A stretch of DNA of 64,000 nt from Nitrososphaerota archaeon (GCA_041641305.1 JBEPYN010000002.1:466009-530008); one strand, 5' to 3'; positions 30,854 through 46,538 are shown, counted from the stretch's first letter. Notes: a model not told the origin generated them from the sequence alone. Made by a program: numbers and translations.

Positions 30854-30882
30854 CCGCGGAAAACACCACAGTCCCTACATTT

Positions 30883-30890
30883 AAAAGTGG
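30883..30890 (-). promoter_or_regulatory. TATA box (TTTTAAAT on minus strand) for nop5-flpA operon
   Basis: The AT-rich octamer lies 30-37 bp upstream of the nop5 start codon. This is consistent with a leaderless archaeal promoter. Confidence 0.4.
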
Positions 30891-31074
30891 AAGACTGGCC
30901 CACCCCTCCACGCGAAAAACATAGAACCACATGATAGCTAGTTAGAAGCCTAATGCAACAACAGACGCGATAGTTCAGACACGACCCACTAAGCAAGCTT
31001 CTCCATGCGGATGGACAGCTTCAAACCTCGAAAAAGGGCAGCAGAAATGTTCTATCCTCACGAACATGGAAATG

Positions 31075-31082
31075 TTTTAAAT
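31075..31082 (+). promoter_or_regulatory. TATA box (TTTTAAAT) for the secreted FN3 protein gene
   Basis: About 27 bp upstream of the TTG/ATG start at 31105/31108. Confidence 0.4.
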
Positions 31083-31104
31083 CAAACACGTCAACGGACG
31101 GAGT

Positions 31105-33687
31105 TTGATGAAGAAAGCGGTACTGGGTTTTTTGCTGGTTTTGCTGGGATTGTCCAGCTTTATGGCAGGCCAGTTAACGACCACATTTACCGCAACCATC
31201 TACTCAACAGTTACTGAAACAACCACTTATCTCTCACAACTCAGCACCACAGTGAAAGAGTATGTTTCATCGATTGTAACTGTAACACGGCATGTAACTA
31301 AGACAACTGTACAGCAGACAACAATAACCACCAGTAGCCCCCCAGCCCCACCATCTAACCTGAGAGTGCAAAACGCTGATTTCGGAAGCATTGTTCTTAC
31401 TTGGCAGGACAACTCGGTTGATGAAGAGGGTTTTCGCATCGAGAGGAGCGAAGACAACGAGATTTTTACAACAATTGGTGAGACACCTCCCAACACAATG
31501 AACTTTGTGGACACTTCTGTAGAAAGCGAAAAAACGTATTTTTACAGGGTCAGAGCCTACCGTGGAGAGTATGTAACCTCTCCTTCTAACACAGTTGCGG
31601 AGACAGCAACACCATACGGAATACCTCTTAGCAACTATTTCGGCGGCTTGGGCGAGCTTGAAACAGTCGTCTCCAACGTGCGTGAACGAGAAGGTTTTGC
31701 AGACATCTTCAACCCCTACTGGAACTGGATGAAATGGCCCCAAGGCTCCAAAGGAGCCAAAGCAGAGGCATCCATAGACTTTAACGACTTCGTCTCTGGC
31801 GCAGGAAGCCAAAAAATCTCAATCCAAAGAACTAACGAATCAGGCGAGGATACAAGGCTTATTCTGACATCATGGAAAATACAGCCTAAAAACCCTACAT
31901 ATAAGGCATTCTATCCTCTTCCAGGTGAGAAAATTGTATTCACTTTCAGCTACAAGACCAGTGAAAAAGTAATCAACATCGAATATGCTGTCATGTTGTA
32001 TTTCATCGTCCGCGACAACACGGGCAACGAGCGCTATCTCCCGCCACTATATGTTTTACGAACACAGGAAGCGTCACCATTTTGGAGAAAAGTTTCATTC
32101 ACAGCAGAAGTTCCAGCCAATTTCACAGCCGTAAGAATCTTTGTCACCTATATATGCAGAAAATCATGTGCAGGAACATTCTGGCTCGACAGCTTTGTTC
32201 TGCATACGGAGCCTGAAAAACGTCTTCCACTGCTAGGCAAGGACAAAATCAATTTCAAGCTGGCCGCCATCCATGGAGAAGTATTCGGAAAGGATCCGCT
32301 GGAACTTGCTCAGAAATATGACCTGCTTCTAGGCGGCCTAGCCACCAACACCTACGTGAAAGGATTAAACACACAGGTTCTCAGCCTCCTATACTTTAAC
32401 GACCCCTCCCTCGCATCCAGCAGGAGAAACAGCTCAAACACTCCTCCCTGCATGATGAGATGGAACGGCACAACACCTGTCTACGAGTTCCTACACTACT
32501 GGCCCAGCGTTTACGGAGGGGTTTCGGAGGAATGGCTTTTAAGCGCCTCCTCCTCAGCCAAATACCCACGCATAAACAGTTCAGGATACTTCATAGTCCG
32601 GGAAAAGTATTGCGAGTTTCTCGTGGACATAGGTCGTGAGGATGTAATCGAAACAGCGCTGAAAAACATCGAAATGCTATATGTGTACGCAGGGTACAGA
32701 AATCCCACACTGTCCCCGATCCTCTTCCACGACAACCTCCCCAACTTTGTCTATCTCTGGAACATGGACGGAGCTCCTCCATCAAAATATCCAGACCGCG
32801 AAACACGTAAAATAATCTTAGACCATATGCTCAACCGTTTAAAGAAAAGCATCTTGGACCCCTATCCCGACCGTAAAATCATAGCAAACATAGGAACATA
32901 CAGCAACGAAGAGTTCCAGTATGTCGTTAGGTTTGATTACGACGGCGTTTTAATCGAGTATTTCACACGAATCTTTAACAAAACGTTGTCTCCCTCACTA
33001 TTGTATCAACAGTTTCATGCTCTCAAAAATTACCCCGACAACAAGGTCGTAGTGTTAGTAGATACAGTTCCAGGACAATACGTTAAACTGTGGAATGAAA
33101 ATCCTATGCTTGTCCCCGATAATGTGAGAAGACATTTTGGCTTCGTTTTGGCTGCACTATACCTGCTTAACAGACCTAACACGTATATCACTCTCCGCGG
33201 AGATGAAGGAGGATACTCGTCATCATATATTCTGAAAGATTTCTACCTCCCATTAGGCAGGCCTCTGCAAGACTTGGAAACCGTTGAAGGAGATGAGAAA
33301 AATGGCGCTCTCTTTCTGAGAAGGTACAGCAACGGCCTAGTCCTTCTCAACACGGCGTCAAGCAGAAGCTTCACATACTTTGTTGCGGAGAAACATCGTG
33401 ACAGGGCCGGCAACGTGTTTACCGGCTTGATAACCATCCCACCCCAGACAGGACTCGTATTATATAGAAACGAAACGCAGAGCAACAGTGAATACGGCAC
33501 CTCCACCACGGCATTAACCACCACCACGGCGCCTCCGCAATATGCCAAGAGCACAGAAACCAAAAATCTTAGAGGAAATGCACCCATATGGCTTAACGAA
33601 TCAAACAAGATAGCATTAAATACCGGAAAACAGACGACAATATGGTATGCCCTCCCACGGAAGCATAACCAAGGCTGGGAAAGTTAG
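31105..33687 (+). CDS. secreted Thr-rich glycoprotein candidate with fibronectin type III domain and large extracellular domain of unknown function
   Basis: Signal peptide MMKKAVLGFLLVLLGLSSFMAGQ. Thr-rich linkers (TTTFTATIYSTVTETTTY, STTALTTTTAPP). FN3 signature LRVQNADFGSIVLTWQDNSVDEEGFRIERSEDNEIFTTIGE...TYFYRVRAY. Many N-x-S/T sequons. No C-terminal TM anchor. Confidence 0.8.
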   Translation: MMKKAVLGFLLVLLGLSSFMAGQLTTTFTATIYSTVTETTTYLSQLSTTVKEYVSSIVTVTRHVTKTTVQQTTITTSSPPAPPSNLRVQNADFGSIVLTWQDNSVDEEGFRIERSEDNEIFTTIGETPPNTMNFVDTSVESEKTYFYRVRAYRGEYVTSPSNTVAETATPYGIPLSNYFGGLGELETVVSNVREREGFADIFNPYWNWMKWPQGSKGAKAEASIDFNDFVSGAGSQKISIQRTNESGEDTRLILTSWKIQPKNPTYKAFYPLPGEKIVFTFSYKTSEKVINIEYAVMLYFIVRDNTGNERYLPPLYVLRTQEASPFWRKVSFTAEVPANFTAVRIFVTYICRKSCAGTFWLDSFVLHTEPEKRLPLLGKDKINFKLAAIHGEVFGKDPLELAQKYDLLLGGLATNTYVKGLNTQVLSLLYFNDPSLASSRRNSSNTPPCMMRWNGTTPVYEFLHYWPSVYGGVSEEWLLSASSSAKYPRINSSGYFIVREKYCEFLVDIGREDVIETALKNIEMLYVYAGYRNPTLSPILFHDNLPNFVYLWNMDGAPPSKYPDRETRKIILDHMLNRLKKSILDPYPDRKIIANIGTYSNEEFQYVVRFDYDGVLIEYFTRIFNKTLSPSLLYQQFHALKNYPDNKVVVLVDTVPGQYVKLWNENPMLVPDNVRRHFGFVLAALYLLNRPNTYITLRGDEGGYSSSYILKDFYLPLGRPLQDLETVEGDEKNGALFLRRYSNGLVLLNTASSRSFTYFVAEKHRDRAGNVFTGLITIPPQTGLVLYRNETQSNSEYGTSTTALTTTTAPPQYAKSTETKNLRGNAPIWLNESNKIALNTGKQTTIWYALPRKHNQGWES

Positions 33688-34112
33688 AAGCCAGACACCC
33701 AAACTCGAGGCCAAGCCACGCAAATCACCCTTCCCACGCCAGAGAAACAGAAACAACTATCTCAAAAGAGTCCTCGCACCAGCAGCCTCGCAGACAGAAT
33801 AGCTCAAACAATAACCTTCCTAAACCCTCAACACAAAACAGACTGAACCCATAGGATAAGAACAAGCGTTCTTGAACTCGGGGCAACATGATTTTAAGAA
33901 ACGCTATTCCACTCCGTGAATTTGTTAAATTATCATTTTTCCGCCACAGATGTACAGGGTATGTCTGCTTTTCTAATCTGCTTGTAAAACTGTTTCCAGT
34001 AGCAGCGTCCAAAGCTGTTACCTGAAAAGCAGTTAGATTCCTCTAGTGGATGTAGTGTTCAAGAATCTGGTTAAGAAGGTGGGGAATAGTTGGTTTCAGC
34101 GTTTTTGTTGAT

Positions 34113-35072
34113 TTATGGACTGGGTTGTGTTGTTTTCCAGTATCTTATGTATTTTGCCACCATATCCTCTATGTCTGTTCTCGGTCTCCAGCCCAGTTGT
34201 TCTCTGGCTTTTGTGTTGTCGGAGTAGCTTTCTAGCGCTTCGTGGGGTTTCAGCTCTTTTTCGACTATTCTCGAGCTGCTGCCCAACTGTTTTATGATGA
34301 GCTCGGCCACTTTTCTGACGCTGACTGGTCTCCCGAATCCTATGTTGTAAACCTCCCCCCGTCCACCTCTTTCGGCCGCCAGAATAGTGCCTTGGACGGC
34401 GTCCTTAACGTATGTGAAGTCTCTGGAAGCTGGTTTGAAGACACCGTCTACATATCTTCCGTAAACCTCAAGGTCGAGGTTCTTGGAGGCACGTTCAGCG
34501 AAAACACGGAAAACTATGTTCCCGCGGCATCTTTCTCCCACAACGTTAAAGTACCTGACAATTACCACGTCAAGCCCATAGTCTTTGACATACTGGCTGC
34601 ATAGCTCTTCACATATCCATTTGCTGAGGGCGTAGGGCCCCATGGGGTCTGGCTTCATGTCCTCTCTGAGAGGTGGGGTGTTTTTCCCGTAGATGCTGCT
34701 GCTTGATGAAAAAAGTATTCTGGGACTGGGTTCGCTAAGCCGTGCCGCCTCCAAAATGTTAAGCGTCGAAAGTATGTTGTTTTCGAGATATTTGTATGGT
34801 TCGTTCATGCTCAGTCTATGGGATGCCAGCGCCGCTAAATGATACACTGCATCTGGCTTGATGATTCTAAAAATTTCTTTTACTTTTTCAAGGTCTTTCA
34901 GGTCGTTGTACTCTACTTTGAGGTTTGACGCTGATTTGTGGCTGGTTAACGAGTTCAAGTTATTCTCCGGGGGTGATGGGTTGCTGATTCCGGTGATTTT
35001 CTCACCTCTGTCTAGGAGTGTTTCGACGAGGTGGCTGCCTATGAAGCCTAAAGCGCCTGTGACAACTATCAT
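34113..35072 (-). CDS. NAD-dependent nucleotide-sugar epimerase/dehydratase (SDR)
   Basis: VTGALGFIGSHL Rossmann motif. YxxxK catalytic context (GPYALSK). Extended SDR length of 319 aa. Confidence 0.85.
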   Translation of the reverse strand: MIVVTGALGFIGSHLVETLLDRGEKITGISNPSPPENNLNSLTSHKSASNLKVEYNDLKDLEKVKEIFRIIKPDAVYHLAALASHRLSMNEPYKYLENNILSTLNILEAARLSEPSPRILFSSSSSIYGKNTPPLREDMKPDPMGPYALSKWICEELCSQYVKDYGLDVVIVRYFNVVGERCRGNIVFRVFAERASKNLDLEVYGRYVDGVFKPASRDFTYVKDAVQGTILAAERGGRGEVYNIGFGRPVSVRKVAELIIKQLGSSSRIVEKELKPHEALESYSDNTKAREQLGWRPRTDIEDMVAKYIRYWKTTQPSP

Positions 35073-35097
35073 AGTTCGGAGACGGCTGGGGCATTTT

Positions 35098-36204
35098 TTA
35101 AGCTAAACATTTTCTGTAAACTTCCTTGTATTGCTCAGCTATTTCCTCGGGTTTGAACAGTGCCGACTTTGTAGCCGCGTTTTGGGACATCCTTGTCCAT
35201 AGCTCTTTATCCGTCAACAGTTTTGTTATGTGCTGCGCTAGCTCGTGATGGCTTCTTGGTGTGAAGAGGAGGCCGTTTACGCCGTGGTCGACTATTTCTC
35301 TGAGGCCGCCGACGTTTGACGCTATGACTGGCCTGCCGGCGGCCATCGCTTCGGCCGCGGCCATGCCGAACGGCTCGTAGATGGATGGAAGTATGAAGAT
35401 ATGAGCTTTGGCCAGCAGTTTTTCGACATCAGACCTGTGGCCTAGAAACTGGATGTTGTTTTCGAGTCCCAGCTTTTTAACTAGTTGGGTGTAGCTTTGT
35501 CTTAGCGGGCCGTCGCCTGCCACGAGAAGGTTTGGCCGGCTCTGCTTGTCTATGTTTGCTATTGCTTTTATGAGTGTTTCTATGTCTTTTACTCTGTCGA
35601 GTCTCGCTGTGGTGAGAATGGTCGGCTCCCGAGGGGGTTTCTGCTCTGTTTTTGAGAATCTTTCGTGGTCTATTGGGTTCCATATTGGTGTGGCTTTTAC
35701 CCCATGTGTTTCTCTGAGGTGTGCGGCCATCCACTGGCTGCATCCCACAACTTCATCAGCCAGCTGGAGACCGAGTCTGAATAACACCGTGTTAACCAGT
35801 CTGGAGAGGAGGCTGTTTTTGTTGAGATGCGTCTCCAATACCGGGTCACCCTCCACCGTGTAGACATGTTTTATGCCGAGAATCTTTGCGACAACCCCTG
35901 TTACCGCTGCTTCCTTGGGCCCGTGGCTGTGAATGATGTGGATACCTTGCTTCCTGGCCGTTTTTAATGTTTTGAAGAAGAGCCACATCCAGTGGAGGGC
36001 TCCCCTTACCCTAGGGTTTTCGCCGATAACCTCTACTTTTTTTGCCTTTAGTTTGTTGAGTAGGTTTTTGTCGATGGCCGATGGGTTAGGTGTTATGAGG
36101 ATAGGTTTTACACCAGTATGTGGAAGGCCGAGCATGAGGTGAAGCATAGCCAGAGTCGCTCCGCCAACTCTCCCACTCGCGGTGAACAGTATCTTCATGT
36201 TCAT
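35098..36204 (-). CDS. glycosyltransferase family 4
   Basis: GT-B fold. C-terminal EPFGMAAAEAMAAGRPVIASNVGGLREIV (E-x7-E region). Confidence 0.85.
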   Translation of the reverse strand: MNMKILFTASGRVGGATLAMLHLMLGLPHTGVKPILITPNPSAIDKNLLNKLKAKKVEVIGENPRVRGALHWMWLFFKTLKTARKQGIHIIHSHGPKEAAVTGVVAKILGIKHVYTVEGDPVLETHLNKNSLLSRLVNTVLFRLGLQLADEVVGCSQWMAAHLRETHGVKATPIWNPIDHERFSKTEQKPPREPTILTTARLDRVKDIETLIKAIANIDKQSRPNLLVAGDGPLRQSYTQLVKKLGLENNIQFLGHRSDVEKLLAKAHIFILPSIYEPFGMAAAEAMAAGRPVIASNVGGLREIVDHGVNGLLFTPRSHHELAQHITKLLTDKELWTRMSQNAATKSALFKPEEIAEQYKEVYRKCLA

Positions 36205-36290
36205 CCGCCTTTTCTCAGGTTGGATGTCCTGTTTGGATGTTGTTTGGCATGGGTTTTCTGTATTCGTTGTTGCGTCAGTGTTCTTAAGGA

Positions 36291-37739
36291 TTAGTCTGAT
36301 GAGGTTAGGATAAGTCTTCGGGCTTCTTCTACGGCTTGTTTAGCTAGTTGTCTAGCATCTTTGTCTATGAGCAGTAGGAATGCGAAGTAGGTTGCTGCAC
36401 CTATGGCGATTGATGCTAGGGTTTGTATGGTTCCTACAGGGTTGATGATCAACAGGGTTATGGCCATTGCTATTGAGGCTGGAACAGTTTTCTCCAGGCC
36501 GTTGAAGATTGTTTTTGGTGGGGCTTTTTTCGCGTATATTAGAACCATGGGTATGATGCCTGTGATTGAGGAGGCTAGTCTGGCGGCTGCGGCGCCATGT
36601 ATTCCAAGTGGGCCTGCTGTAGCGGCGGTTACTGTGATGAGGGTTGCTAGGGATAGGTAGCTTGGTAGCTGGGTGGTGAATAATGTGCTTTTTAGCAATT
36701 GTTTGCTGCTGTTTTGTGTGTCGCTTTTTTCTAGTGCGGTGATGACTGTTTTCATTGTTAGGGTTGTGATGCCTATGGCGTTGGCTGTGAGTAGCATGGG
36801 TAGTAGAGGGGCGGCTTGTATGTATCTTGTTCCAAAGATTTCGGTGAGTTGTTTGGATAGTGTGATGCCTCCTATTATCATGGGTGTGGTGAAGATGTGT
36901 AGGAATTTGAAGAGTGCTTTTAGTTCTGTTGGCTGCGCTGTTTTTGTTTTTAGGAGTTTCGGGTAGATTGTTCCGGTTAGTCCTTTTGCTGTGCCTATGA
37001 TGCTTGCTATGGCTAGGGCGATGCCGTAGTGTGATAGGTCTGTTGCTGTGAGGAGGACGCCTATGATGAAGGAGTCGGTGGCTGTTGAAATATAGCCTAG
37101 CAGGTTCTCGTGTAGTGGTATCCATATTTTTTTTAGCGAGTTTCTCAGCCATGTTTTGTTGAAGCTGTGTTTGAGATGTTGTTGGTTTGTTTTGAGTAGG
37201 TATAGTGTGTAGGCTATGTTGCCTGTCGTGACTGCTGCTACGATTCCTTCAAGTCCGTATGGTAGTAGGATGAAGGCGAGGGGGATTTTTACGCTGTCTA
37301 TGATGATTGTTCTTAGTCCGAGTTTGTGGGGTGCGGTGCTGTAGGTAATTGTTGTTAGTGCGGCTGAGATGTAGTAAACCGGTATGAGTGTTGATGCGAG
37401 GATGAAGGTTCTTGGCTCAGATTCTATGATTGATGATAGGGTGTTTGATAGGAGTATGAATACAAGTGTTATGGGTATGGATATTGCGGTGTTGAATAGT
37501 AGGGTTGTTTTTCCCACTTCTTCTCCTCGTGGGATGTCGCGACCCGCCCAGTAGGGTATGGCTTTCTCCAAGACTTGGAAGTAGGGGAGGACGCTGCCGA
37601 TAAAGAACCATGTTCCAAGAACGGGTTGAGGGAGGTTTCGCGCTATCAACACGTTGAATATGAAGCCTGTTAACAAGGTGACGAGGTTGCCGGTGAACAG
37701 CAAAGCTCCGCTGAATCGGACACGGATACTTCCCGACAA
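36291..37739 (-). CDS. oligosaccharide/polysaccharide flippase (Wzx-like, MOP superfamily)
   Basis: 482 aa with about 12-14 TM helices. Typical polysaccharide-biosynthesis-protein topology. Located inside the GT cluster. Confidence 0.8.
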   Translation of the reverse strand: MSGSIRVRFSGALLFTGNLVTLLTGFIFNVLIARNLPQPVLGTWFFIGSVLPYFQVLEKAIPYWAGRDIPRGEEVGKTTLLFNTAISIPITLVFILLSNTLSSIIESEPRTFILASTLIPVYYISAALTTITYSTAPHKLGLRTIIIDSVKIPLAFILLPYGLEGIVAAVTTGNIAYTLYLLKTNQQHLKHSFNKTWLRNSLKKIWIPLHENLLGYISTATDSFIIGVLLTATDLSHYGIALAIASIIGTAKGLTGTIYPKLLKTKTAQPTELKALFKFLHIFTTPMIIGGITLSKQLTEIFGTRYIQAAPLLPMLLTANAIGITTLTMKTVITALEKSDTQNSSKQLLKSTLFTTQLPSYLSLATLITVTAATAGPLGIHGAAAARLASSITGIIPMVLIYAKKAPPKTIFNGLEKTVPASIAMAITLLIINPVGTIQTLASIAIGAATYFAFLLLIDKDARQLAKQAVEEARRLILTSSD

Positions 37740-37905
37740 GCCTCAACAACTACACTCCAACCTACTAAAAGCTGTATGCTGATGTTTCCATGACTGAGAA
37801 AAGATGGGGCCTGCGGTGTAGCAGTGATCTGGCGTATGTTTTTCTCATGCCTGTGTCATAGTTGATGATTACACAGCTCGGGCTGAGTCTTGCTTTTGGC
37901 GATGA

Positions 37906-38574
37906 TTGTGTTTATTGGAAAAACTTCTTAAATGTTTGGAGCGAGGATATTTTATGGGTCTTCTTGAGGGGCTTGTTGCTTTTAGGTTGGCGTTATTTTG
38001 CAGGGAGTTGAGGGATGGTCTGAGGGTTGCGGTGGATGTTGGATGTAGATTGGGCTGGGCTGGGCATATGTTGGCTGCTGTTGCAGGCAAGCCTGTTAAA
38101 GTTGTTGGGCTGGATGTTTACGAGCCCTATCTCAGAACCTTGGCAGAAATAAGCAAGATATATGAGCCGTTGAGGGTTGACTTGGAGACAGAGCCGATAC
38201 CTCTACCCGATGGCTTCTCGGACCTGACGCTGTGCATCGAGGTTATCGAGCATCTCAGCAAGCCTGCGGGGTATCGTCTCCTAGATGAAATGGAGAGGAT
38301 AACTAGGAAAGGTGGCTATATCTACTTAACCACGCCCAACGGCTGGCATGGAGCGAAAACAGAGAGATGCGTTCCTTTACAGCACAAATCTGCATGGGTC
38401 GTTCAAGATTTTGTGCAACGCGGTTACGTTGTTAAAGGATATGGGTTTAGAGGTTTAAGGGGTAGAGGAAAAATCGGTAAATTCTATCTTCTGGCTGACT
38501 ATGCTTGGACTCCGGTTGCCCGCATAGTTCCGCAGACAGGGTTTGGGCTCGAGGTGTTTAAGAAGATAACGTGA
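37906..38574 (+). CDS. class I SAM-dependent methyltransferase
   Basis: VDVGCRLGWAGHML (motif I), LTLCIEVIEHL and GGYIYLTTPN (Methyltransf_11/23-like). Confidence 0.7.
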   Translation: MCLLEKLLKCLERGYFMGLLEGLVAFRLALFCRELRDGLRVAVDVGCRLGWAGHMLAAVAGKPVKVVGLDVYEPYLRTLAEISKIYEPLRVDLETEPIPLPDGFSDLTLCIEVIEHLSKPAGYRLLDEMERITRKGGYIYLTTPNGWHGAKTERCVPLQHKSAWVVQDFVQRGYVVKGYGFRGLRGRGKIGKFYLLADYAWTPVARIVPQTGFGLEVFKKIT

Positions 38575-38677
38575 AGCGTTGACATGAGGTTTTTTCAAAT
38601 GAATGGATGAGCTGCGTGTTGCTGGCGATGTTGTTCAGTAATTTAACTTTTATTTGTGGTAGTTTCTGGGTTGAGGC

Positions 38678-39748
38678 GTGAAGATTGGTACTTTTGTGTC
38701 TGCCTATCCGTTTTACAACTTTAGGTACTTGAAGTTATTGGGCGAGTTTTCTAAGAGGTTTGGTGTCTATGTTTTCGCGGGATCTACCTTGGGAAAGCAT
38801 TACCGTGTTGACGGTTTTAGGCTTTTGCGTGTTCTTCCTTTCAGACTTCCGCGCAGAATTGGTTACTTGGTTGGTAGTTTGTCTGGGCAGGTTTTCATGG
38901 GTTTGGCGGATGTCGATCTATACTGGTTTTTTGACACAGCTTCTCCATTGATTCTATCTGTTCTTACTAAGCCGGTTGTTCTAGATGTTGATGACCCTAA
39001 GATTACTCTACCCTACTCGGAGAAGAAGAATGTTCCACGCTTTACTTTGGCTAGGGAGCTTCAACTTTTGAAGAATAAGCGGGTTGCAAAAATAGTTGTT
39101 CCAACGGAGATGATTCGGGATAAATTCGTCATGAATGGGGTTGATTATGAGAAGATTGAAGTGATTCCATATGGTGTAGATACCGATTTGTTCACACCTT
39201 CTCCTCTGCCCGATGACCCGGTCGTGTTATACTATGGAACCTTTCAACACCACCGTTCCAGACTATTAGTGGACCTCGTGGAGGCTTTGGCGAGGAAGAG
39301 AGGTGATGTCAGGTTCATACTCGTTGGCGATATGCCGCCATCAGTAAGGAGAAGGCTGGAAAGATTTGTTGGTGGCAGGGCTGAGATGCCTGGGTTTGTC
39401 ACCCATGACGAGCTTCCTAGCTATATTCAGAGAGCCAGAGTGTGTATTCTGCCGCAGGGCAGGTCGTTGGGTGGCAGGCTCTCATTTAAGCTTCTTGAGT
39501 ACATGGCTTGCGGAAGGCCTGTGGTTTCAACGGATGTTGATGAGTCTTTCCCAGTCAAGAAATCGGGCGCAGGAATAGTAACACCTGTGGACGCCGAAGC
39601 TATGGCCGACGCCATAATCGACCTACTCGACGACGACACGTCAGCAAAGCAGATGGCTGAAAAAGGCATAAACTACGCTAAACAATTTGACTGGCACAAC
39701 ATGGTAGACAAATACGTCAATCTCTTTAAACAAGTGGCTGAAAAATAG
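38678..39748 (+). CDS. glycosyltransferase family 4
   Basis: GTG start. GT-B C-domain: LEYMACGRPVVSTDV...SGAGIV. Confidence 0.8.
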   Translation: MKIGTFVSAYPFYNFRYLKLLGEFSKRFGVYVFAGSTLGKHYRVDGFRLLRVLPFRLPRRIGYLVGSLSGQVFMGLADVDLYWFFDTASPLILSVLTKPVVLDVDDPKITLPYSEKKNVPRFTLARELQLLKNKRVAKIVVPTEMIRDKFVMNGVDYEKIEVIPYGVDTDLFTPSPLPDDPVVLYYGTFQHHRSRLLVDLVEALARKRGDVRFILVGDMPPSVRRRLERFVGGRAEMPGFVTHDELPSYIQRARVCILPQGRSLGGRLSFKLLEYMACGRPVVSTDVDESFPVKKSGAGIVTPVDAEAMADAIIDLLDDDTSAKQMAEKGINYAKQFDWHNMVDKYVNLFKQVAEK

Positions 39749-39752
39749 TTAC

Positions 39753-40652
39753 CTAAAATTCCCAAAAAACAGTTAAGATCATCCGTTTTTCTCCTGAACG
39801 GGTTTGAGTTAATCTTTTGGACAAGATTTTTCCGTCGCCAAGATGGTTACGCAACTCGCTGACAGATGCAACAGCTTCATGATTTGGTATATCATGAAAA
39901 TCTACCACCAGTCTTTTCACTCCCAAGGCAGGAAGTAGGAGCAACTCTTTCATGACAAAGTGTTCGCACCCCTCACAGTTGAGCTTAACAACTTGGGGCT
40001 TATATATACTAACTAACTCGGTTAAACTTTTCACAGGCACCTCAAGTTTGGATAAATTGCCATCTGGAAATTCTAACCCATATCCAATCGATCCATAATT
40101 TGACGGAATGTCCGGGACAGCGTTGCCCACAGCTATGTTCAATGTTTCAACGGGAAGTCCGCGACAATTCATCTCAATGAACCTAACATGGTAAGGTACA
40201 GGCTCAACTGCAACAACCCTGCCCGCCTTCTTGTACATCCACATCAGCGGCGTATCTCCCAAATAAGCCCCTACGTCGAGCACAACAAGTCCCTCAACAT
40301 CCATCGGATACTTGCGGAGAAGAATGGTAGGAGGCGCCACCCCCTCGGCCTTAAGAGGTATAGTGAAATCCCTCCCGAAATAATCTCCAATAATTAAGAC
40401 ATCGGGTCCAAAATTGACTACAGAAAGCATGTCACCATAGTGACGCCAGCTTTTCTCAAGCCTAACAAGCTGCCTCAAAAGCAAACGTGCACTACAAACA
40501 ATCACCCCACCACGTCTTGAAACAAACCCCCCCTCCAACCTAAACAAAGACCTCAGCAAAAGCTGAAACCAGTTAACCACATGCCTCCTAGCAACAGACA
40601 AAGCAAAAAAATAACTTCTGACGCGACTGACAATTGAAGCGTAACCAGACAT
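39753..40652 (-). CDS. FkbM-family methyltransferase
   Basis: VLDVGAYLGDT SAM-binding motif and an overall Methyltransf_21-like layout. Located in the glycan cluster. Confidence 0.6.
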   Translation of the reverse strand: MSGYASIVSRVRSYFFALSVARRHVVNWFQLLLRSLFRLEGGFVSRRGGVIVCSARLLLRQLVRLEKSWRHYGDMLSVVNFGPDVLIIGDYFGRDFTIPLKAEGVAPPTILLRKYPMDVEGLVVLDVGAYLGDTPLMWMYKKAGRVVAVEPVPYHVRFIEMNCRGLPVETLNIAVGNAVPDIPSNYGSIGYGLEFPDGNLSKLEVPVKSLTELVSIYKPQVVKLNCEGCEHFVMKELLLLPALGVKRLVVDFHDIPNHEAVASVSELRNHLGDGKILSKRLTQTRSGEKRMILTVFWEF

Positions 40653-40702
40653 CTCATGATTTGCTGGCAGAAACTCATCTAAATACTTTTATGAATTAGT
40701 AA

Positions 40703-41692
40703 TTAAGCTGAAACGTTGGAAAGCATTAGTGCTGTTAGCTCCTTTATCGAAAGCCGCGGGTCCTTCAACTCCCTGACACCGAGAATTTCCTTGATGCGGT
40801 CGATTTTGCAGATAAACCTGTTTTTGTCGTCGGGTGTAAAGAGTGGTGGAAACCCTTTATCCACAACCTCAACCACTGGGCTGACCCTGCCGTTCGTCAA
40901 CTGCTCCACAGCCTTCTTAACAATCTCAGCAAGCTCGATGACTGTGATCGGCTCGGGGTACACGAGGTTAAAGATGTTTCCAACCCCCCGTAAGCCGCCG
41001 TCAAAAATCCTCCTAATGACCAGCTCATAGACCTTGACAACGTCCTCAACATCCACATACAGGATTGGCCTATACATGCTGTTTCTGTACGGGGTAAGGG
41101 GCAGCCCCTTGACAGCGTTCTTTATGAAGATTTTCGCAGCGGTCTGCTCAGGCATTCCAGGCCCCAGAACCGTCCCAGTCCGTACCACCACATACGCCTT
41201 ATCCCTAAACATGTAACTAAATAACCTCACCACAGACTCCTGACACACCTTAGACAAGGCGTAAATTCTAGCCCTCTCCTCAACCTTGTCAGGCCTATAC
41301 CCAAAATCCTCGTCAACAACCCCCATCAACCCCGTCTCCCCGATAGTATGCCAAGTACCCGCCTGAACCATACCCAAGCATGAAACACTCCTCGCCACAG
41401 CCTCACAAACATTCTGGGCACCTACCACGTTAACCTCATAACCGAGACGAGGCTCATCATTAATCCTTGGAATCTGAACAATAGCCGTGTTGACCGCAAC
41501 CCGGGCATCATCCAAAGCGTCGGAAACGGACTTCAAATCACGAACATCACACTCGAAGAACTCAGCATCAATCTGCTCTCTAGGCCTGACCACATCCGCA
41601 ATCCTGACCCTAAAACCAATACTTGACAAATGCTTGGCAACGGACGAGCCGATAAATCCCGCCCCGCCGAAAACCACTACATCAACAGTCAT
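40703..41692 (-). CDS. NAD-dependent epimerase/dehydratase family protein
   Basis: The likely start is MTVDVVVFGGAGFIGSSV (Rossmann motif). The longer ORF up to 41779 overlaps the upstream GT4 gene. YALSK catalytic motif. Confidence 0.8.
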   Translation of the reverse strand: MTVDVVVFGGAGFIGSSVAKHLSSIGFRVRIADVVRPREQIDAEFFECDVRDLKSVSDALDDARVAVNTAIVQIPRINDEPRLGYEVNVVGAQNVCEAVARSVSCLGMVQAGTWHTIGETGLMGVVDEDFGYRPDKVEERARIYALSKVCQESVVRLFSYMFRDKAYVVVRTGTVLGPGMPEQTAAKIFIKNAVKGLPLTPYRNSMYRPILYVDVEDVVKVYELVIRRIFDGGLRGVGNIFNLVYPEPITVIELAEIVKKAVEQLTNGRVSPVVEVVDKGFPPLFTPDDKNRFICKIDRIKEILGVRELKDPRLSIKELTALMLSNVSA

Positions 41693-41726
41693 AGAAGCCA
41701 CGCTATAAAACCATGATTTAAATTGT

Positions 41727-42902
41727 TTACGCCCTGCGTTTACCCACCTCGTCCAAAACCCGGGCAATTTTTGGAACAATCACAGCATAGCTAAACTCTT
41801 TCTCAACATGTTGTCTCGCGTTTACCCCCATTTCTTTGCGTAAAGAATCGTCGGTAAGTAGCTTGTGTAAACGATCGGCCAACGCCGCTATGTCCCGGGG
41901 CTCCACAACGAAACCTGTAAAACCATCGACCACGGCCTCAGGTATTCCCGCAACCCTTGTCGCCACAGCAGGTCGGCCGCACGCCATCCCCTCCAGCAAA
42001 GCCCTCGGAATACCCTCACCCTCCCTCGTCGCATAAGCCACAACATCAGCTGACCTGAAGAGCATAGGCATCTCCCTGTTGGGAACCGGGCCCAAGAAAA
42101 AGACAGAATCAGCAAGACCCGGTTTCTCAACCATCTTAGCCAGTCGGCTCATATAGCCAGCTTCACCAGAACCAGCAATGGCCAAAACACAGTCACTATA
42201 CTTGGCACTAACTATTTCGAAGGCTTGAACGAGGTCGCCCACACCTTTTTTCTCATTAACTCGTCCAACATAAAGTACGCATCTCCGTCCTCTCTTCAAC
42301 GTCTCAAGCCGCTGACTTCTATCACCCCATGGATTAAACCTGTCAACATTCACAGCGTTATGTATGTAGATAACCTTAGAGACGTCAAGCTTCCGATGGT
42401 AGAGCAAAACCTCGGGAAGCATAAGCCTCGAATATAAAACAACTTTCTCACAAGCATCCAGAGCCCTTCTAAGAAACCATCTATAGAACCTCTCCTTTCC
42501 CTTAGCCTGCATCGGGTCGCCGAACAGCCAAGTTCCTGGGAGAACAAGAACGGACGGTATGCCAGCCAACTGTTTACCCATCCATATGGCTGAGAGCTCA
42601 GGTGGGCTAAAGGTCCTAACATAAACAACATCAACATCCCCTCCCTTCAGAACAGGTGTTAAACTATAGAAAACAATTTTAGTGGCTCCGTACAACTTGG
42701 GAACCCTGAGAGCTGGAACCTTAACAATCTCCATGTTAGGGGGCAGGTCAAATCTACGTGATGCAACAGTATCGGATACAACAAAAAGATGATCAACATA
42801 TCTGCTGAGCATCAAATATTCTTCGAAATACTGTGCATGGAGGGATGGGGCATCCAGCCCTTCAACCCGGCCGATGAAAGTCAATACATTAACCATAGAC
42901 AT
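41727..42902 (-). CDS. glycosyltransferase family 4
   Basis: GT-B fold: GRVNEKKGVGDLV...EGEGIPRALLEGMACGRPAVATRVAGIPE. Confidence 0.85.
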   Translation of the reverse strand: MSMVNVLTFIGRVEGLDAPSLHAQYFEEYLMLSRYVDHLFVVSDTVASRRFDLPPNMEIVKVPALRVPKLYGATKIVFYSLTPVLKGGDVDVVYVRTFSPPELSAIWMGKQLAGIPSVLVLPGTWLFGDPMQAKGKERFYRWFLRRALDACEKVVLYSRLMLPEVLLYHRKLDVSKVIYIHNAVNVDRFNPWGDRSQRLETLKRGRRCVLYVGRVNEKKGVGDLVQAFEIVSAKYSDCVLAIAGSGEAGYMSRLAKMVEKPGLADSVFFLGPVPNREMPMLFRSADVVAYATREGEGIPRALLEGMACGRPAVATRVAGIPEAVVDGFTGFVVEPRDIAALADRLHKLLTDDSLRKEMGVNARQHVEKEFSYAVIVPKIARVLDEVGKRRA

Positions 42903-42959
42903 CGAGCGTGGAAATAACCACTAAATAAACCCTATAACAACAAGAAAAACCTTGATAAC

Positions 42960-43934
42960 CTATTGGGTCTTCAATATATTCGCGGCAAAACGCATATAGC
43001 TCAAAGCATACCTCTCTATCGATTCACTCCATTCAAATTTTGTTGCAACGATTTCGCGCGCTTTTTCAGCAATCTGTGTGCGTTTTTCTACATCGTTCAG
43101 TAGCTGTGCTATTTTTTCGGCGAGAAGCTGGGGGTCTCTCCGCTTCACCAGTAGAACGCTTTCCCCGTCACGGAGCACCTCGGGAACTATTCCAACGGGT
43201 GTTGAGACACTGGGCGTCAGACATGCCGCGGCCTCGAAAACAGTTCTCGGCCCGCCTTCAAAATGGGAGGTGCACACAAAGACAGCGGCCTCGTTATAGT
43301 GTCTAACAACCTCATCCTCGGTAACCCATCCCAGAAACCTCACCACATCAGATACACCAAGCTGTTCAGCCAAGCGGCTCAACCGCGCTCTCTCGGGCCC
43401 ATCACCGAGAACCTTAACCTCCAAATCATGAAAATCACGGCGGAGAATAGGAACCGACTCCAGCAAGAGCTCAAGACCCTTTTCAGGAACAAGCCGGGCC
43501 GCTGTCAAAACCATATGCCCCCTCCCAGAGGGTTTACTGAGAGGCTTGAAAAGGTCGAGCCTAATGTAGACCGAGGGGATCACGGAAACCTTCGAAACGC
43601 CGTTTGCTCTGAGATGAGAAGCGATGTTGTTGTTGACCGCGCGAACCATGTTGGACGACCTTAGGACAAACCAGGCAGCCAGCCTGTCTTTGCGGGGAAG
43701 AAAACCCTGCTCCAAGTAGGAACCATGCACCTCCGTGATGAGTGGAGCTCCTGACAGTTTTGCTTGCAGAAGGGCTGGGACCCCGACCCGGAGAGTAGGC
43801 TCCTGCGCAACCACCAGGTCATACCGTCTCAGCCTAGGCTTGAAGAAACCCGTCACAACCTCGACCTCGCCCCAGTATCTTCTCAAGTCCTCCAAAGCTA
43901 TCGAAGGCTTTCTCCCAACCATCAATACTCTCAT
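42960..43934 (-). CDS. glycosyltransferase family 4
   Basis: HFEGGPRTVFEAAACLTPSVSTPVGIVPEV C-terminal GT4 motif. Confidence 0.8.
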   Translation of the reverse strand: MRVLMVGRKPSIALEDLRRYWGEVEVVTGFFKPRLRRYDLVVAQEPTLRVGVPALLQAKLSGAPLITEVHGSYLEQGFLPRKDRLAAWFVLRSSNMVRAVNNNIASHLRANGVSKVSVIPSVYIRLDLFKPLSKPSGRGHMVLTAARLVPEKGLELLLESVPILRRDFHDLEVKVLGDGPERARLSRLAEQLGVSDVVRFLGWVTEDEVVRHYNEAAVFVCTSHFEGGPRTVFEAAACLTPSVSTPVGIVPEVLRDGESVLLVKRRDPQLLAEKIAQLLNDVEKRTQIAEKAREIVATKFEWSESIERYALSYMRFAANILKTQ

Positions 43935-45250
43935 GAGCCGAGTCCTACCGCCGCAAACCTCACCCTCTCCGAAAACTCTGACGGGCTGTAAACCCTTCTC
44001 CCATCAACCAGAACAGGCCGCCTCATCAGCTTTTCAAAGGTTCGAGGCCTTAATCTCCTGAACTCATCCCACTCCGTCGCCAATATACAGACGTCAGCCC
44101 CTCTTAAACAGTCTTCCGCAGAACCTGCGTAAACCACTTTTTCACCAAGTATTTTTCTCACGTTATCCATGGCCACCGGGTCATACACCTTCACCACACA
44201 CTTTCTCTCCAGCAGTGCTTTGATTATTTTGAGCGCAACGGCTTCTCTCACATCGTCTGTGTTGGGTTTGAACGAGAGTCCGAGAACAGCCGCGGTCTTT
44301 CCCTCAAGGTTTCCAACCATTTTTTCAGCCAGTTCAATGGCTTTTAGGGGCTGGGACTCGTTAACCTTGTCGACGGCGTCCAGTATAAGTGGGTGCTCAC
44401 CCATTTCCTCCGCAAACTTCTTCAAGGCTTTGACATCTTTGGGGAAGCAGCTTCCGCCGTATCCAAGTCCCGCGTTCAGGAAATAGGGGCCTATACGTTT
44501 ATCCAATCCAACCGCTTTCGCAACAACGGTGATGTCTGCTCCCGGGATGTGTTGGCAGATGTTTGCAACCTCGTTGATGAGGCTTATGCGTGCGGCGAGG
44601 AACGCGTTACTCGCATATTTTATCATCTCAGCGTTGACCGTGTTTGTCAAGATTGTTGGCGGCATCATACGCCGGTAAAATCCTTGATAAAGCTTGAGCA
44701 GTCTTCTCCCACCTTTCCCCCAGTCATCACCTATCACAATCCTGTCAGGATTAAATGTGTCTTGCACAGCGTTGCCTTCGCGGAGAAACTCAGGGTTGAC
44801 GCAGAGAAAGAGCCCATCACCAACCGTCTTACCCGACGCGTTTTCCAGCTCTTTTTTCACAAGCCCCCGCGTCGTCCCGGGAACAACGGTGCTCCTCACA
44901 ACAACTGTGCAGGATCTTCTGCGGCTGGCCAGGGCCTCCCCGAGACTATGTGAAGCTTCGGCGACATACGACAGGTTAATACCTCCATCGGGTTTCGAAG
45001 GTGTTCCGACAGAGATGAAAACAAAGTCCGCGTCACTTGCTTCGGCGTAATCGCTGCTGCAGCCAAAGTTATGCCTGCTTTTTTTCAGAAGTTTTTCGAG
45101 GCCAGGTTCCTTGAAGGGTGCTTTCCCGGCCTTGATTGTCTCGACTTTGTTTTGGTCAACGTCTATGCCCATAACCTTGAAGCCTCGGGAGGCAAGGCAG
45201 GCCGCTGTGGTGAGTCCAACATATCCGAGCCCGATGACGGCTATTTTCAT
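43931..45250 (-). CDS. UDP-glucose/GDP-mannose dehydrogenase family (nucleotide-sugar 6-dehydrogenase)
   Basis: N-terminal MKIAVIGLGYVGL. Catalytic Cys region GGSCFPKD. 439 aa. Confidence 0.9.
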   Translation of the reverse strand: MKIAVIGLGYVGLTTAACLASRGFKVMGIDVDQNKVETIKAGKAPFKEPGLEKLLKKSRHNFGCSSDYAEASDADFVFISVGTPSKPDGGINLSYVAEASHSLGEALASRRRSCTVVVRSTVVPGTTRGLVKKELENASGKTVGDGLFLCVNPEFLREGNAVQDTFNPDRIVIGDDWGKGGRRLLKLYQGFYRRMMPPTILTNTVNAEMIKYASNAFLAARISLINEVANICQHIPGADITVVAKAVGLDKRIGPYFLNAGLGYGGSCFPKDVKALKKFAEEMGEHPLILDAVDKVNESQPLKAIELAEKMVGNLEGKTAAVLGLSFKPNTDDVREAVALKIIKALLERKCVVKVYDPVAMDNVRKILGEKVVYAGSAEDCLRGADVCILATEWDEFRRLRPRTFEKLMRRPVLVDGRRVYSPSEFSERVRFAAVGLGS

Positions 45251-46113
45251 GTTTCGCCGCCTCTGGTGTAACGATATGAAAGTGACAGTGCTTCCATGTA
45301 TGTTTCGGGTGTTCCTATGTCTAGGCGGAGCTCTTTTTCATCGAGTTCGACCGCGAGTATGTTGCCGCCTGTGTCTATGAGTTTCTGGATTGCGTCGGTT
45401 AGCTGCAGCTCTCCTCCGGCGTCTTCGGGTGTGGCGTCAAGTGCTTTCATGATGTATGGTGTGAAGATGTAGAAGGGCATGATGGCGAGGTTGGAGGGCG
45501 GTGTCCTGGGTTTCTCAAAAACCTTGGATACGCGGTGAAGTCCTCCGCCGACCGGCTGTGAAACAACCACTCCATACTGCTGTGGGTTCTCTACTTTCTG
45601 GACAAGGAGTGTTGCGTCGTACTCGTTCTTGGGCCCGGCTGCTATGAGGTTCTTGAGAAATTTGCCGTCCTTGCTGTAGATGTAGGTGTCTCCTGCGCAG
45701 AGAAGGAAGTTGTCGTCTCCGACGAAGTGGCGGGCTGTTTTCACGGCGTCTCCGAACCCGCGTGGAGCGGGCTGGCTCACCCAAACTATGACTGATTCCT
45801 CCAGCATCTTGTAGAATGTGATGAGCTCTGAGACGGTTGAGTATTTGCCCATCTTATCCATTTTATCGATAAAGTCCCAGTCGGGTGTGAAGTGGTCCTC
45901 GATGGCTCTTTTGCCTCTGCCCACGACGAAGCAGAACTGTCTGAACCCGAAGGTGTAGAGCTGTTCAAACAGGGCCTGTAGGAGGGGCTTGAGAGTGACC
46001 GCGCCGTTTCCAGCCCTTACGTAGATGGGAAGCATCTCCTTCGGCATCTCCTTGGTTGTAGGAAGCAGCCGGGTTCCAAGACCCGCCGCAGTTATCACAA
46101 CCTTCCTGACCAT
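45247..46113 (-). CDS. UTP--glucose-1-phosphate uridylyltransferase-like sugar nucleotidyltransferase
   Basis: ITAAGLGTRLLPTTKEMPKEMLPI signature (GalU/RmlA fold). Confidence 0.85.
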   Translation of the reverse strand: MVRKVVITAAGLGTRLLPTTKEMPKEMLPIYVRAGNGAVTLKPLLQALFEQLYTFGFRQFCFVVGRGKRAIEDHFTPDWDFIDKMDKMGKYSTVSELITFYKMLEESVIVWVSQPAPRGFGDAVKTARHFVGDDNFLLCAGDTYIYSKDGKFLKNLIAAGPKNEYDATLLVQKVENPQQYGVVVSQPVGGGLHRVSKVFEKPRTPPSNLAIMPFYIFTPYIMKALDATPEDAGGELQLTDAIQKLIDTGGNILAVELDEKELRLDIGTPETYMEALSLSYRYTRGGET

Positions 46114-46290: not shown

Positions 46291-46531
46291 TCATAGATGG
46301 TTCTCCTCATACCCACGTCTATGAATACTACGGATTGATTTTTTCGCTTCTATCATGTAGTCTCCACCCCTCCATCTGTAGTAGCCTGTTAGTTCTCCCC
46401 CTGAACCTTGTTCCGCTGTATGGTTTTTCCACAATCTCTAGTATCGCTTTCTCAATACGTTCCCTAGCCTCTTGAGGAAGTTTCCTATACTCTCTAAGAA
46501 ATGATTTCGTAAAAGGAGCCTTGTAGGTCAA
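46291..46531 (-). pseudogene. RelE/ParE-family toxin disrupted by a frameshift in a G5 homopolymer
   Basis: In-frame ORF 46328-46531 (TTG start) encodes TYKAPFTKSFLREYRKLPQEARERIEKAILEIVEKPYSGTRFRG, a typical RelE N-terminus. Removing one G from the GGGGG run (complement of 46397-46401) continues it as ELTGYYRWRGGDYMIEAKKSIRSIHRRGYEENHL*. This matches the RelE C-terminal YRxRxGDYR...HR core. Confidence 0.6.
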
Positions 46532-46538
46532 GGCAGTG

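Follow-up and report, generated by a model that had tools for sequence, protein, structure and literature searches.

What does the DNA between positions 31105 and 46113 of a Nitrososphaerota genome build, and which of its products, if any, receives the glycan? The host is Candidatus Caldarchaeum, a hot-spring archaeon, and to our knowledge no experiment has yet addressed the cell envelope of the Caldarchaeales (Aigarchaeota). The stretch lies in a window of 64,000 nucleotides, the whole of the DNA analyzed here, and was originally predicted to be a contiguous island for surface-glycan synthesis, headed by a secreted 860-aa glycoprotein candidate. All 12 of the open reading frames (ORFs) named in that prediction are present at or near the positions proposed, and Pfam and NCBIfam annotation bears out their families. 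We consider it likely that the locus is a cell-surface glycan cassette of Candidatus Caldarchaeum, that the content of its slot is exchangeable, that its glycan is probably destined for the oligosaccharyltransferase AglB, and that the 860-aa protein is a separate hydrolase candidate.

Gene content of the glycan cluster

The glycan cluster proper extends from 34113 to 46113 and does not include the 860-aa gene. Within these 12 kb, it combines a GalU-like nucleotidyltransferase and a UDP-glucose dehydrogenase (AglF/AglM-like), four divergent GT4 glycosyltransferases, two SDR enzymes, two methyltransferases and a PST/Wzx flippase, i.e., glycosyltransferases co-located with genes for the synthesis and modification of nucleotide sugars, as in a Wzx (PST/MOP)-dependent cluster for a lipid-linked glycan. 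The idea of a coherent glycan-assembly cluster with a flippase, nucleotide-sugar enzymes and methyltransferases is thereby supported. The genes are packed as in an operon: starts and stops overlap by 4 nt at 45247-45250 and at 43931-43934.

The GalU/AglF-like sugar-1-phosphate nucleotidyltransferase (45247..46113, minus strand; NTP_transferase, 94 bits) is encoded by the first gene of a long minus-strand unit. Its best NCBIfam match is GalU (186 bits, cut-off 327), and AglF reaches 118 bits (cut-off 400). The adjoining UDP-glucose 6-dehydrogenase (UGDH; 43931..45250, minus), AglM/TuaD-like and built of three UDPG_MGDP_dh Pfam domains, matches AglM best (455.7 bits, cut-off 670) and passes the model of the NDP-sugar dehydrogenase subfamily (455 bits, cut-off 190). 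The families fit a UDP-glucuronate supply of the AglF/AglM type at scores under the equivalog cut-offs of AglM, GalU and AglF; indeed, all scores that bear on enzyme specificities in the cluster lie under the NCBIfam equivalog cut-offs. Going by family membership, the two enzymes would provide UDP-glucose and UDP-glucuronic acid, and SDR1 and SDR2 might interconvert the nucleotide sugars. SDR1 (34113..35072, minus) resembles nucleotide-sugar 4-epimerases (Pfam Epimerase 187.6 bits, GDP_Man_Dehyd 205 bits; GalE model 171 bits, under the cut-off of 262), and its nearest PDB entries are 4zrm (a UDP-Glc 4-epimerase), 6dnt and 6zl6; UDP-Glc, UDP-GlcNAc and UDP-GlcA are candidate substrates. SDR2 (40703..41692, ORF to 41779, minus) is a divergent member of the epimerase/dehydratase family (Pfam Epimerase, 79.8 bits) with only weak PDB matches (2p5u, E 7e-13; uronate dehydrogenase 3ay3, E 5e-11).

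Sugar methylation could be carried out by two SAM-dependent enzymes, again judged by family: a class I methyltransferase (37954..38574, ORF from 37906, plus strand; Methyltransf_11, 41 bits) and an FkbM-family methyltransferase (39753..40538, ORF to 40652, minus), which passes TIGR01444 (52.2 bits, cut-off 37.7) and falls slightly under the cut-off of Pfam Methyltransf_21 (22.2 bits). The glycosyltransferases are GT4a (35098..36198, ORF to 36204, minus; Glycos_transf_1 165 bits, Glyco_transf_4 67 bits), GT4b (38678..39748, plus; Glyco_trans_1_4 85.8 bits), GT4c (41727..42884, ORF to 42902, minus; Glycos_transf_1 131.5 bits), which is 21-31% identical to the remaining three, and GT4d (42960..43934, minus; Glycos_transf_1 135 bits), which has a short N-terminal domain. 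The start of GT4d overlaps the stop of UGDH; no other gene has a start region that overlaps the GT4d stop. The starts of GT4a and of both methyltransferase genes were taken from the gene calls of L089, in which GT4a is 100% identical. Four GT4 genes, not five, are thus present, as the list given with the original prediction itself shows; the minimum of five sugars deduced there is unsupported because the genes had been miscounted.

The only multi-span membrane protein of the island is the flippase candidate (36291..37739, minus), a member of the PST/Wzx family (MOP superfamily) that would flip the lipid-linked glycan outward. It passes Polysacc_synt_3 (29.5 bits, cut-off 23), fails MatE (15.7 bits, cut-off 24.9), which argues against a MATE drug exporter, and contains at least eight strongly hydrophobic segments. 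Orthologues in Caldarchaeales are 54-68% identical and carry the NCBI name "oligosaccharide flippase family protein"; in three other species they are accompanied by SDR and GT4 genes, and orthologues of GT4d (319-329 aa) adjoin flippase orthologues in other species. The candidate assignment draws on this modest Pfam score together with the annotation of the orthologues.

A variable chromosomal slot

Comparison with related genomes shows a fixed slot between rpS30e/Nop5 on one side and UGDH, the GalU-like gene and AtpD on the other, the content of which is exchanged among species and among near-identical strains. The left border proper is the housekeeping gene for ribosomal protein S30e (rpS30e; 33647..33802, plus; Pfam Ribosomal_S30, 45.8 bits), which adjoins Nop5 on the opposite strand in nearly all related genomes compared and is also called in strain L005. 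UGDH and the GalU-like gene belong to the conserved right flank: UGDH orthologues occupy the same locus in the sister species L014 and L015 (62-63% identical), and in L015 the GalU-like orthologue (69% identical) adjoins UGDH, a gene for a 214-aa membrane protein (memb214) and AtpD. Between UGDH and S30e, both sister species carry two GT2 genes. In C. subterraneum (L009), SDR1, GT4a, the FkbM gene and GT4b are present in rearranged order, with an SDR1 orthologue at the same locus that is 80% identical and a GT4b orthologue that is 64% identical.

Strain L005 is 99.4% identical across 15.1 kb, as far as the start of GT4a. The breakpoint, at about 36199, coincides with the 5' end of GT4a, i.e., the GT4a/flippase junction; past it there is no similarity, and L005 encodes a flippase on the other strand that is only 25% identical. 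This strain-level switch is seen in a single MAG contig, which continues for just 1.35 kb past the breakpoint and may be an assembly chimera. Taken together, the comparison supports a cassette that varies at the species and the strain level, in line with the proposal of a variable island. The AT-richness adduced for the same proposal is real yet mild: GC content is 0.48 in the island vs. 0.52 elsewhere in the window, and GC3 is 0.44-0.49 in the flippase, Methyltransf_11, GT4b, FkbM and GT4c genes vs. 0.58-0.68 in the flanks.

Fate of the glycan and the secreted neighbor

Among an N-glycan, another glycoconjugate and a polymer, an N-glycan is the favored end-point. We infer it only, since the window offers neither AglB nor a priming enzyme of the GPT/AglH or AglJ type. 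As originally predicted, STT3/AglB (WWDYG motif) is absent among the ORFs of at least 480 aa in the 64-kb window, which encode Aldedh, the alpha and beta subunits of PheRS, SMC, the 860-aa protein, the flippase and a fusion of a methyltransferase with ATP-grasp. Likewise, the family scan, which covered ORFs of at least 150 aa and thereby nearly all of those in the window, revealed no priming transferase (GPT/AglH, WbaP type or AglJ-like GT2), the gene for which may lie in another part of the genome. Priming and final transfer would then both be performed by enzymes from other loci, the final one most likely by AglB, yielding an N-glycan. In ammonia-oxidizing Nitrososphaerota, agl homologues are reported to be dispersed in the genome and not clustered, which has been termed a typical pattern of Thermoproteota (PMC12153357). 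For the wider lineage, an N-glycan pathway encoded in one cluster would be atypical, which counts against an N-glycan cluster.

Alternatively, the cluster might make the repeat units of an exopolysaccharide or capsule, with the neighboring 860-aa protein, described below as GH168-like, as a glycanase for processing or dispersal. Glycanases of this kind are PelA, PslG and Ega3 for Pel, Psl and galactosaminogalactan, respectively. The GT4s score best, yet under cut-offs, against the EPS-associated EpsE and PEP-CTERM stp2/stp3, and the hydrolase gene adjoins the cluster in the present lineage. However, neither the island nor the 64-kb window revealed a polymerase of the Wzy type, a regulator of chain length or a component for export (memb214, which matches no family, belongs to the conserved flank). 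In four other species, the hydrolase has orthologues that lie away from glycan genes, and in the present window a ribosomal protein gene stands between the hydrolase gene and the cluster, which lie on opposite strands. We regard a polymer locus as unlikely and retain the N-glycan as the favored product.

The 860-aa gene (31108..33687, ORF from 31105, plus) neither heads the cluster nor runs contiguously with it: rpS30e, which shares 41 nt with the 3' end of the upstream ORF, separates the two, and the first cluster genes are on the opposite strand. In the present lineage, the 860-aa gene has been inserted into the divergent Nop5/rpS30e pair. Its product was proposed to be a Thr-rich, S-layer-associated glycoprotein with many sequons that accepts the glycan. 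A signal-peptide-like N-terminus (aa 1-22) and a Thr/Val-rich linker (aa 23-76; 21 of the 59 residues at aa 22-80 are Thr) are indeed present, and as an extracellular protein with eight sequons it may well be glycosylated, like any exported archaeal protein having sequons. "Many", by contrast, does not hold: eight N-x-S/T sequons in 859 aa compare with 8.6±2.6 in composition-preserving shuffles, 66% of which contain at least eight. The sole hydrophobic segment is at aa 5-23, and a search for a C-terminal hydrophobic anchor found none.

Moreover, some 600 residues appear to form an enzyme rather than an acceptor. In Pfam, the protein matches FN3 alone (28.1 bits, cut-off 25; aa 77-165), but the AF2 model (pLDDT 92.6) predicts a CBM-like beta-sandwich (~200-368), a GH168/GHL15-like (beta/alpha)8 barrel (~380-715) and a C-terminal beta-sandwich (~720-788); the tail (790-859) is non-conserved and reads through the old S30e promoter. 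In the modeled barrel, a putative Asp nucleophile (D542) follows beta4 and a putative Glu acid/base (E617) follows beta6, and D, N and E are near-invariant across 47 relatives. Full-length homologues occur in Caldarchaeum and related MAGs only. The protein itself does not match the Pfam GHL15 model (PF14885), and a PDB sequence search with the Caldarchaeum-only profile gave no match; distant relatives do carry GHL15, hhalign gives a probability of 100% (E 4e-59), and the Caldarchaeum profile matches two proteins above the GHL15 cut-off, P0111 (E 3e-44) and P0161 (E 4e-5), so that homology is transitive.

Given these features and the linkage to glycan genes in the present lineage only, with orthologues in four other Caldarchaeum genomes located away from such genes, a dedicated acceptor or S-layer component at the head of the island is not supported, and we hold this role to be very improbable. 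The protein is better described as a candidate secreted glycoside hydrolase that distantly resembles GH168/GHL15 and carries FN3 and CBM-like modules, and the annotation "FN3 domain-containing protein" in Caldarchaeum should probably be corrected to a secreted glycanase related to the GH168 fucanases, which were characterized only recently. More speculatively, and with rather low odds, the FN3-CBM-barrel proteins, which are specific to Caldarchaeales, could be an archaeal offshoot of GH168/GHL15 with a new substrate (e.g., archaeal or biofilm exopolysaccharides of hot springs). Their position next to the glycan cassette in the present lineage would in that case be due not to chance but to a functional pairing of glycan synthesis with remodeling outside the cell.

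It is scarcely credible that the GT4s serve cytoplasmic products (glycogen, trehalose, compatible solutes or BshA/MshA-like thiols) and no surface glycan, as their NCBIfam matches to BshA (155 bits), glgA_Coryne (103) and MshA (102) are far under the cut-offs of 274, 302 and 462 (TreT, 42 vs. 775), their neighbors include UGDH, epimerases, methyltransferases of the sugar type and a flippase of the PST family, and flippase, SDR and GT4 genes recur together in other species.

Relation to known glycan systems

Both variable glycan cassettes and clusters of the Agl type are already well known, and neither the locus nor the reannotation changes current concepts. A surface-glycan cassette of this kind does provide a concrete, strain-variable candidate locus for surface-glycan diversity in Caldarchaeales, which could be tracked through metagenomes from hot springs to mark diversification driven by viruses or predators, and the glycanase reannotation bears on a possible degradation of extracellular polysaccharides by Caldarchaeum archaea.

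The 860-aa protein compares best with the GH168 (formerly GHL15) endo-alpha-1,3-L-fucanases MeGH168 (9nhf) and Fun168A (8ya7), the Asp nucleophile and Glu acid/base of which align with D542 and E617 (Asp167 and Glu237 in MeGH168; PMC12210190). It is joined to them by sequence via the intermediate proteins above the GHL15 cut-off, is only 15-18% identical, and differs from them in its additional FN3 and CBM-like modules and its Thr-rich stalk. In a thermophilic archaeal host, the substrate is unlikely to be sulfated fucan.

The cluster shares with bacterial Wzx-dependent O-antigen and capsule loci a PST/Wzx flippase, several glycosyltransferases and nucleotide-sugar genes, a lower GC content of the genes in the center, a fixed slot bounded on one side by conserved sugar-nucleotide genes (here UGDH and the GalU-like gene), and a cassette that, flippase allele included, is replaced between near-identical strains. 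Unlike these loci, the window is without Wzy, chain-length regulator, ligase and priming phosphoglycosyltransferase, and the envelope is archaeal, with a presumed dolichol-type carrier.

Among archaea, the agl cluster of Haloferax volcanii (aglJ...aglM, HVO_1517-1531) comprises AglF (glucose-1-phosphate uridylyltransferase), AglM (UDP-glucose dehydrogenase), the SAM methyltransferase AglP, the Wzx-like, flippase-associated AglR and several glycosyltransferases (PMC3871713). The present cluster differs in that AglB is neither in nor near it, its transferases are GT4, its genes score under the equivalog cut-offs of AglM, AglF and Agl16, and its host belongs to a distant lineage (Caldarchaeales/Nitrososphaerota). 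Nevertheless, the functional gene set is the same and clustered in both, AglM is the top model for UGDH, and the H. volcanii locus sets a precedent for an archaeal N-glycosylation cluster (PMC3871713). Glycan loci of Haloferax, too, differ between species, which their authors liken to serotypes (PMC5867893).

Gene content of the glycan-assembly island

The region at 34113-46113 is a genuine flippase-containing glycan-assembly island, which varies between strains. The original prediction is partly confirmed as an observation and partly supported as an interpretation: all twelve proposed ORFs are present where it placed them, or nearly so, and Pfam and NCBIfam return the same family assignments. 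However, its five GT4 genes are in fact four, and the supposedly contiguous block is interrupted by the rpS30e gene (33647-33802, +), which shares 41 nt with the end of the 860-aa secreted protein's ORF (31108-33687, +) and separates it from the first glycan gene. The AT-richness ascribed to the island is real, but only modest (GC 0.48 vs. 0.52 elsewhere); the flippase, MT11, GT4b, FkbM, and GT4c genes have a GC3 of 0.44-0.49, compared to 0.58-0.68 in the flanks. The genes form three apparent transcription units: GalU-like, UGDH, GT4d, GT4c, SDR2, and FkbM (-), with 4-nt overlaps at two junctions; MT11 and GT4b (+); and flippase, GT4a, and SDR1 (-), directed away from MT11 over a 166-214-bp spacer. 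Flanking repeats or integration scars were represented by short, chance-level matches only, and an Rfam search of the island returned no match.

For the flippase candidate, the Polysacc_synt_3 score (29.5 bits) is above the Pfam cut-off of 23 and the MatE score (15.7) below that of 24.9, so the flippase reading holds against the alternative of a MATE drug exporter; a PDB sequence search with this protein gave no match. The GT4 proteins fall far short of the curated thresholds of the glycogen synthase, trehalose synthase, BshA, and MshA models, and their pairwise identity is only 21-31%. They are four distinct transferases rather than recent paralogues. The possibility that Pfam “GT4-conflict” matches to GT4a and GT4d indicate a defence system was rejected, as much stronger generic GT4 matches overlie them. 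For UGDH, the best model is the UDP-glucose 6-dehydrogenase AglM, with the cut-off of the NDP-sugar dehydrogenase subfamily passed and that of the AglM equivalog not. GalU is the closest model for the nucleotidyltransferase, SDR1 is nearest to UDP-hexose, UDP-HexNAc, and UDP-GlcA 4-epimerases, and SDR2 is too divergent for a specific name.

The window belongs to the genome of a Candidatus Caldarchaeum archaeon (Aigarchaeota/Caldarchaeales): both the 860-aa protein and the flippase have their best homologues among proteins of Caldarchaeum or Nitrososphaerota MAGs. Positions 26291-47739 are 100% identical to a Logan contig, SRR27869038. Both flanks consist of housekeeping genes: Trm1, an NTPase, RNase HII, fibrillarin, and Nop5 on the left, and a 214-aa membrane protein, A-ATPase subunit D, and ProRS on the right. 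A small toxin-antitoxin remnant (46291-46748, -) separates the island from the conserved membrane-protein gene and is composed of an RHH-like antitoxin (46539-46748, -) and a truncated ParE/RelE-like toxin (46328-46531, -; Pfam ParE-like_toxin 21 bits, below cut-off). The C-terminal part of the toxin seems to be carried on in another frame (46291-46434), which suggests a frameshifted pseudogene. Elsewhere in the window, Rfam detects a 105-nt, probably intron-containing tRNA at 1136-1240 (+) that ARAGORN missed. The sole ARAGORN call, tRNA-Gln at 58243-58327 (-), is probably false, since it has no Rfam support and overlies the ends of two protein-coding ORFs.

The 860-aa secreted protein and its gene

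The 860-aa protein had been proposed as a plausible glycan acceptor with many N-x-S/T sequons. Eight sequons are present, compared to 8.6±2.6 in composition-preserving shuffles, i.e., there is no enrichment. Full-length matches are restricted to six proteins, which come without exception from Caldarchaeum or related MAGs, and all other matches cover the FN3 domain alone; the part C-terminal to FN3 is very strongly conserved among the orthologues. PDB sequence searches gave FN3 matches only with the protein itself and no match with a Caldarchaeum-only profile. A profile of the post-FN3 part, compared with 1.84 billion representative proteins, retrieved 84 relatives of roughly 600-700 aa, several of which exceed the Pfam cut-off for GHL15 (“hypothetical glycosyl hydrolase family 15”, now GH168). 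When the Caldarchaeum set and these relatives were compared profile to profile, the probability was 100% (E 4e-59, 545 columns).

AlphaFold2 with only six close sequences left the catalytic region unusable (pLDDT 51.9), and the prediction was run again with a 47-sequence alignment. The resulting model of aa 166-792 (pLDDT 92.6, pTM 0.91) consists of an N-terminal β-sandwich, a (β/α)8 barrel, and a C-terminal β-sandwich. In the structural comparison, with MeGH168 (9nhf) as comparator, GH191 (TM1410), the PelA hydrolase domain, Ega3 (GH114), and Cwp19 (GHL10) ranked next; the N-terminal sandwich has Foldseek matches to CBM16, CBM22, CBM4, and CBM61 modules. HMMER alignment of the family profile to 9nhf places the conserved Asp/Glu on chain residues 170/240, which, with a numbering offset of 3, correspond to Asp167, the nucleophile, and Glu237, the acid/base, of MeGH168 (PMC12210190). 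Their equivalents in the 860-aa protein are D542 (LFHDN) and E617 (LIEYF); together with N594, both are nearly invariant among the 47 relatives. The domain order is a signal-peptide-like N-terminus, a Thr/Val-rich stalk, FN3, a CBM-like module, the GH168-like barrel, a β-sandwich, and a non-conserved tail, and no C-terminal hydrophobic anchor was found. The predicted model thus shows a GH168-like fold with the Asp/Glu dyad; hydrolase activity is what we infer, as is the substrate, which, given 15-18% identity and a hot-spring archaeon as host, need not be sulfated fucan. Barrel and dyad argue against a passive acceptor. The protein is probably a secreted GH168/GHL15-like glycanase that is only a neighbour of the glycan cluster, and re-annotation of this supposed “head” protein is advised as a useful correction.

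Orthologues (53-69% identity) in four other Caldarchaeum genomes occur in contexts unrelated to glycan genes, next to HAD hydrolase, MetRS, and glutamate synthase; RIO1 and SCO1; AsnC and COX3; or HAD hydrolase, MetRS, and molybdopterin oxidoreductase. That the gene heads the cluster is therefore a positional coincidence unless shown otherwise, and its arrangement in the window is common only to a 99% relative. In nearly all related genomes compared, rpS30e adjoins Nop5 on the opposite strand; the spacing is ~75 nt at the four Caldarchaeum loci for which both genes could be placed. In the window, they are held apart by the 2.6-kb 860-aa gene. An element upstream of S30e, AAACnAGATAGCnnTAAATAC, is conserved in the four related Caldarchaeum loci aligned and is probably the S30e promoter. 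It is kept in the window (33596-33640, +), now inside the last codons of the 860-aa ORF. The unrelated contexts elsewhere, the parting of Nop5 and rpS30e, and the retained element together mark the gene as a lineage-specific insertion. Transcription of S30e may start within the inserted gene or run through both genes, and the position of the element explains the non-conserved C-terminal tail as read-through into the former intergenic region.

Proposed pathway and end-point of the glycan

The most economical mechanism would begin with a supply of UDP-Glc and UDP-GlcA and epimerisation of nucleotide sugars by the SDRs. The four GT4s would then lengthen a polyprenyl-phosphate-linked oligosaccharide stepwise, the methyltransferases would methylate it, and the PST-type flippase would finally carry it across the membrane. 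A matching set of functions is found in the agl cluster of H. volcanii, which includes AglF, AglM, AglP, AglR, and glycosyltransferases (PMC3871713). This kind of cluster is already well known and implies no new mechanism.

As no priming transferase, AglB, or polymerase was found among the cluster genes, we infer the end-point: an N-glycan or similar short lipid-linked glycan is preferred to a Wzy-type polymer, given that genes for polymerisation or export are absent. A caution for the N-glycan reading is that agl homologues have been reported as dispersed, not clustered, in ammonia-oxidising Nitrososphaerota (PMC12153357). Nothing specific was found in the literature on AglB or N-glycosylation in Aigarchaeota/Caldiarchaeum. 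Family scans of the window ORFs bear out the predicted lack of AglB. A second low-GC block (52000-55500, +; GC 0.44-0.45), which encodes a 282-aa ORF that matches no family and a 639-aa protein in which a class I methyltransferase is fused to an ATP-grasp domain (D-Ala-D-Ala ligase C-terminal), was rejected as its site in view of that fusion.

The first 26 kb of the window yielded no STT3, and contain a PMT_2-family GT-C glycosyltransferase and a cis-prenyltransferase. The former (2097-3353, -; 418 aa, multi-span), 28 kb from the island, matches PMT_2 with 54 bits and, weakly, protein O-mannosyltransferase and Agl23 models; this candidate dolichyl-phosphate-sugar-dependent transferase could act on Thr-rich exported proteins. 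The cis-prenyltransferase (17337-18167, +) belongs to the undecaprenyl/dehydrodolichyl diphosphate synthase family (262 bits), whose product is the lipid-carrier backbone needed by any lipid-linked glycan pathway. A DUF92 integral membrane protein is encoded at 6312-7121 (-).

Variation of the slot between species and strains

Window proteins were compared with Nop5-anchored genome loci by tblastn, and the ORFs in between were scanned with Pfam. The chromosomal slot is fixed, and the island that fills it varies, with different contents at loci L015, L014, L009 (C. subterraneum), and L005 (contig JAWAIM010000017 of GCA_038888475.1). L015 has the order AtpD, 214-aa membrane protein, GalU-like, UGDH, 4.4 kb with two GT2 genes, S30e, and Nop5, and L014 the order UGDH, 2.1 kb with two GT2 genes, S30e, and Nop5. 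In C. subterraneum, orthologues of SDR1 (80% identity), GT4a (67%), FkbM (62%), and GT4b (64%) occur in rearranged order, without an intervening flippase or MT11 gene. Its slot also holds a toxin-antitoxin-like pair of HEPN and minimal nucleotidyltransferase proteins (L009 8705-9689, -), which adjoins rpS30e, and a 360-aa coiled-coil protein, indicating that other accessory genes accumulate there too. In three further species, a flippase orthologue (60-66% identity) accompanies an SDR and GT4s at a different locus, adjoining zinc alcohol dehydrogenase, EF-1β, aS21, and a Bmp/ABC transporter. In another species (L094), the flippase orthologue is adjoined by a 407-aa protein without Pfam family (8671-9894, -), which could be a polymerase- or ligase-like membrane protein absent from the window's cluster.

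The sharpest case comes from one MAG contig, L005, which is 99.4% identical to positions 21108-36199. The similarity ends wholly and exactly at the start of GT4a, and the next L005 gene (15097-16447) encodes, on the opposite strand, a PST-family protein with only 25% identity to the window flippase. A caveat is that this single contig ends inside the alternative flippase, 1.35 kb past the breakpoint, as is typical of assemblies that break at strain-variable regions. For this uncultured lineage of thermophilic archaea, the cluster offers a tractable marker for the diversification of surface glycans. Judged from the aligned contigs, the difference between L005 and the window has the pattern of cassette replacement, like that of O-antigen and capsule loci and of the glycosylation loci of Haloferax (PMC5867893).
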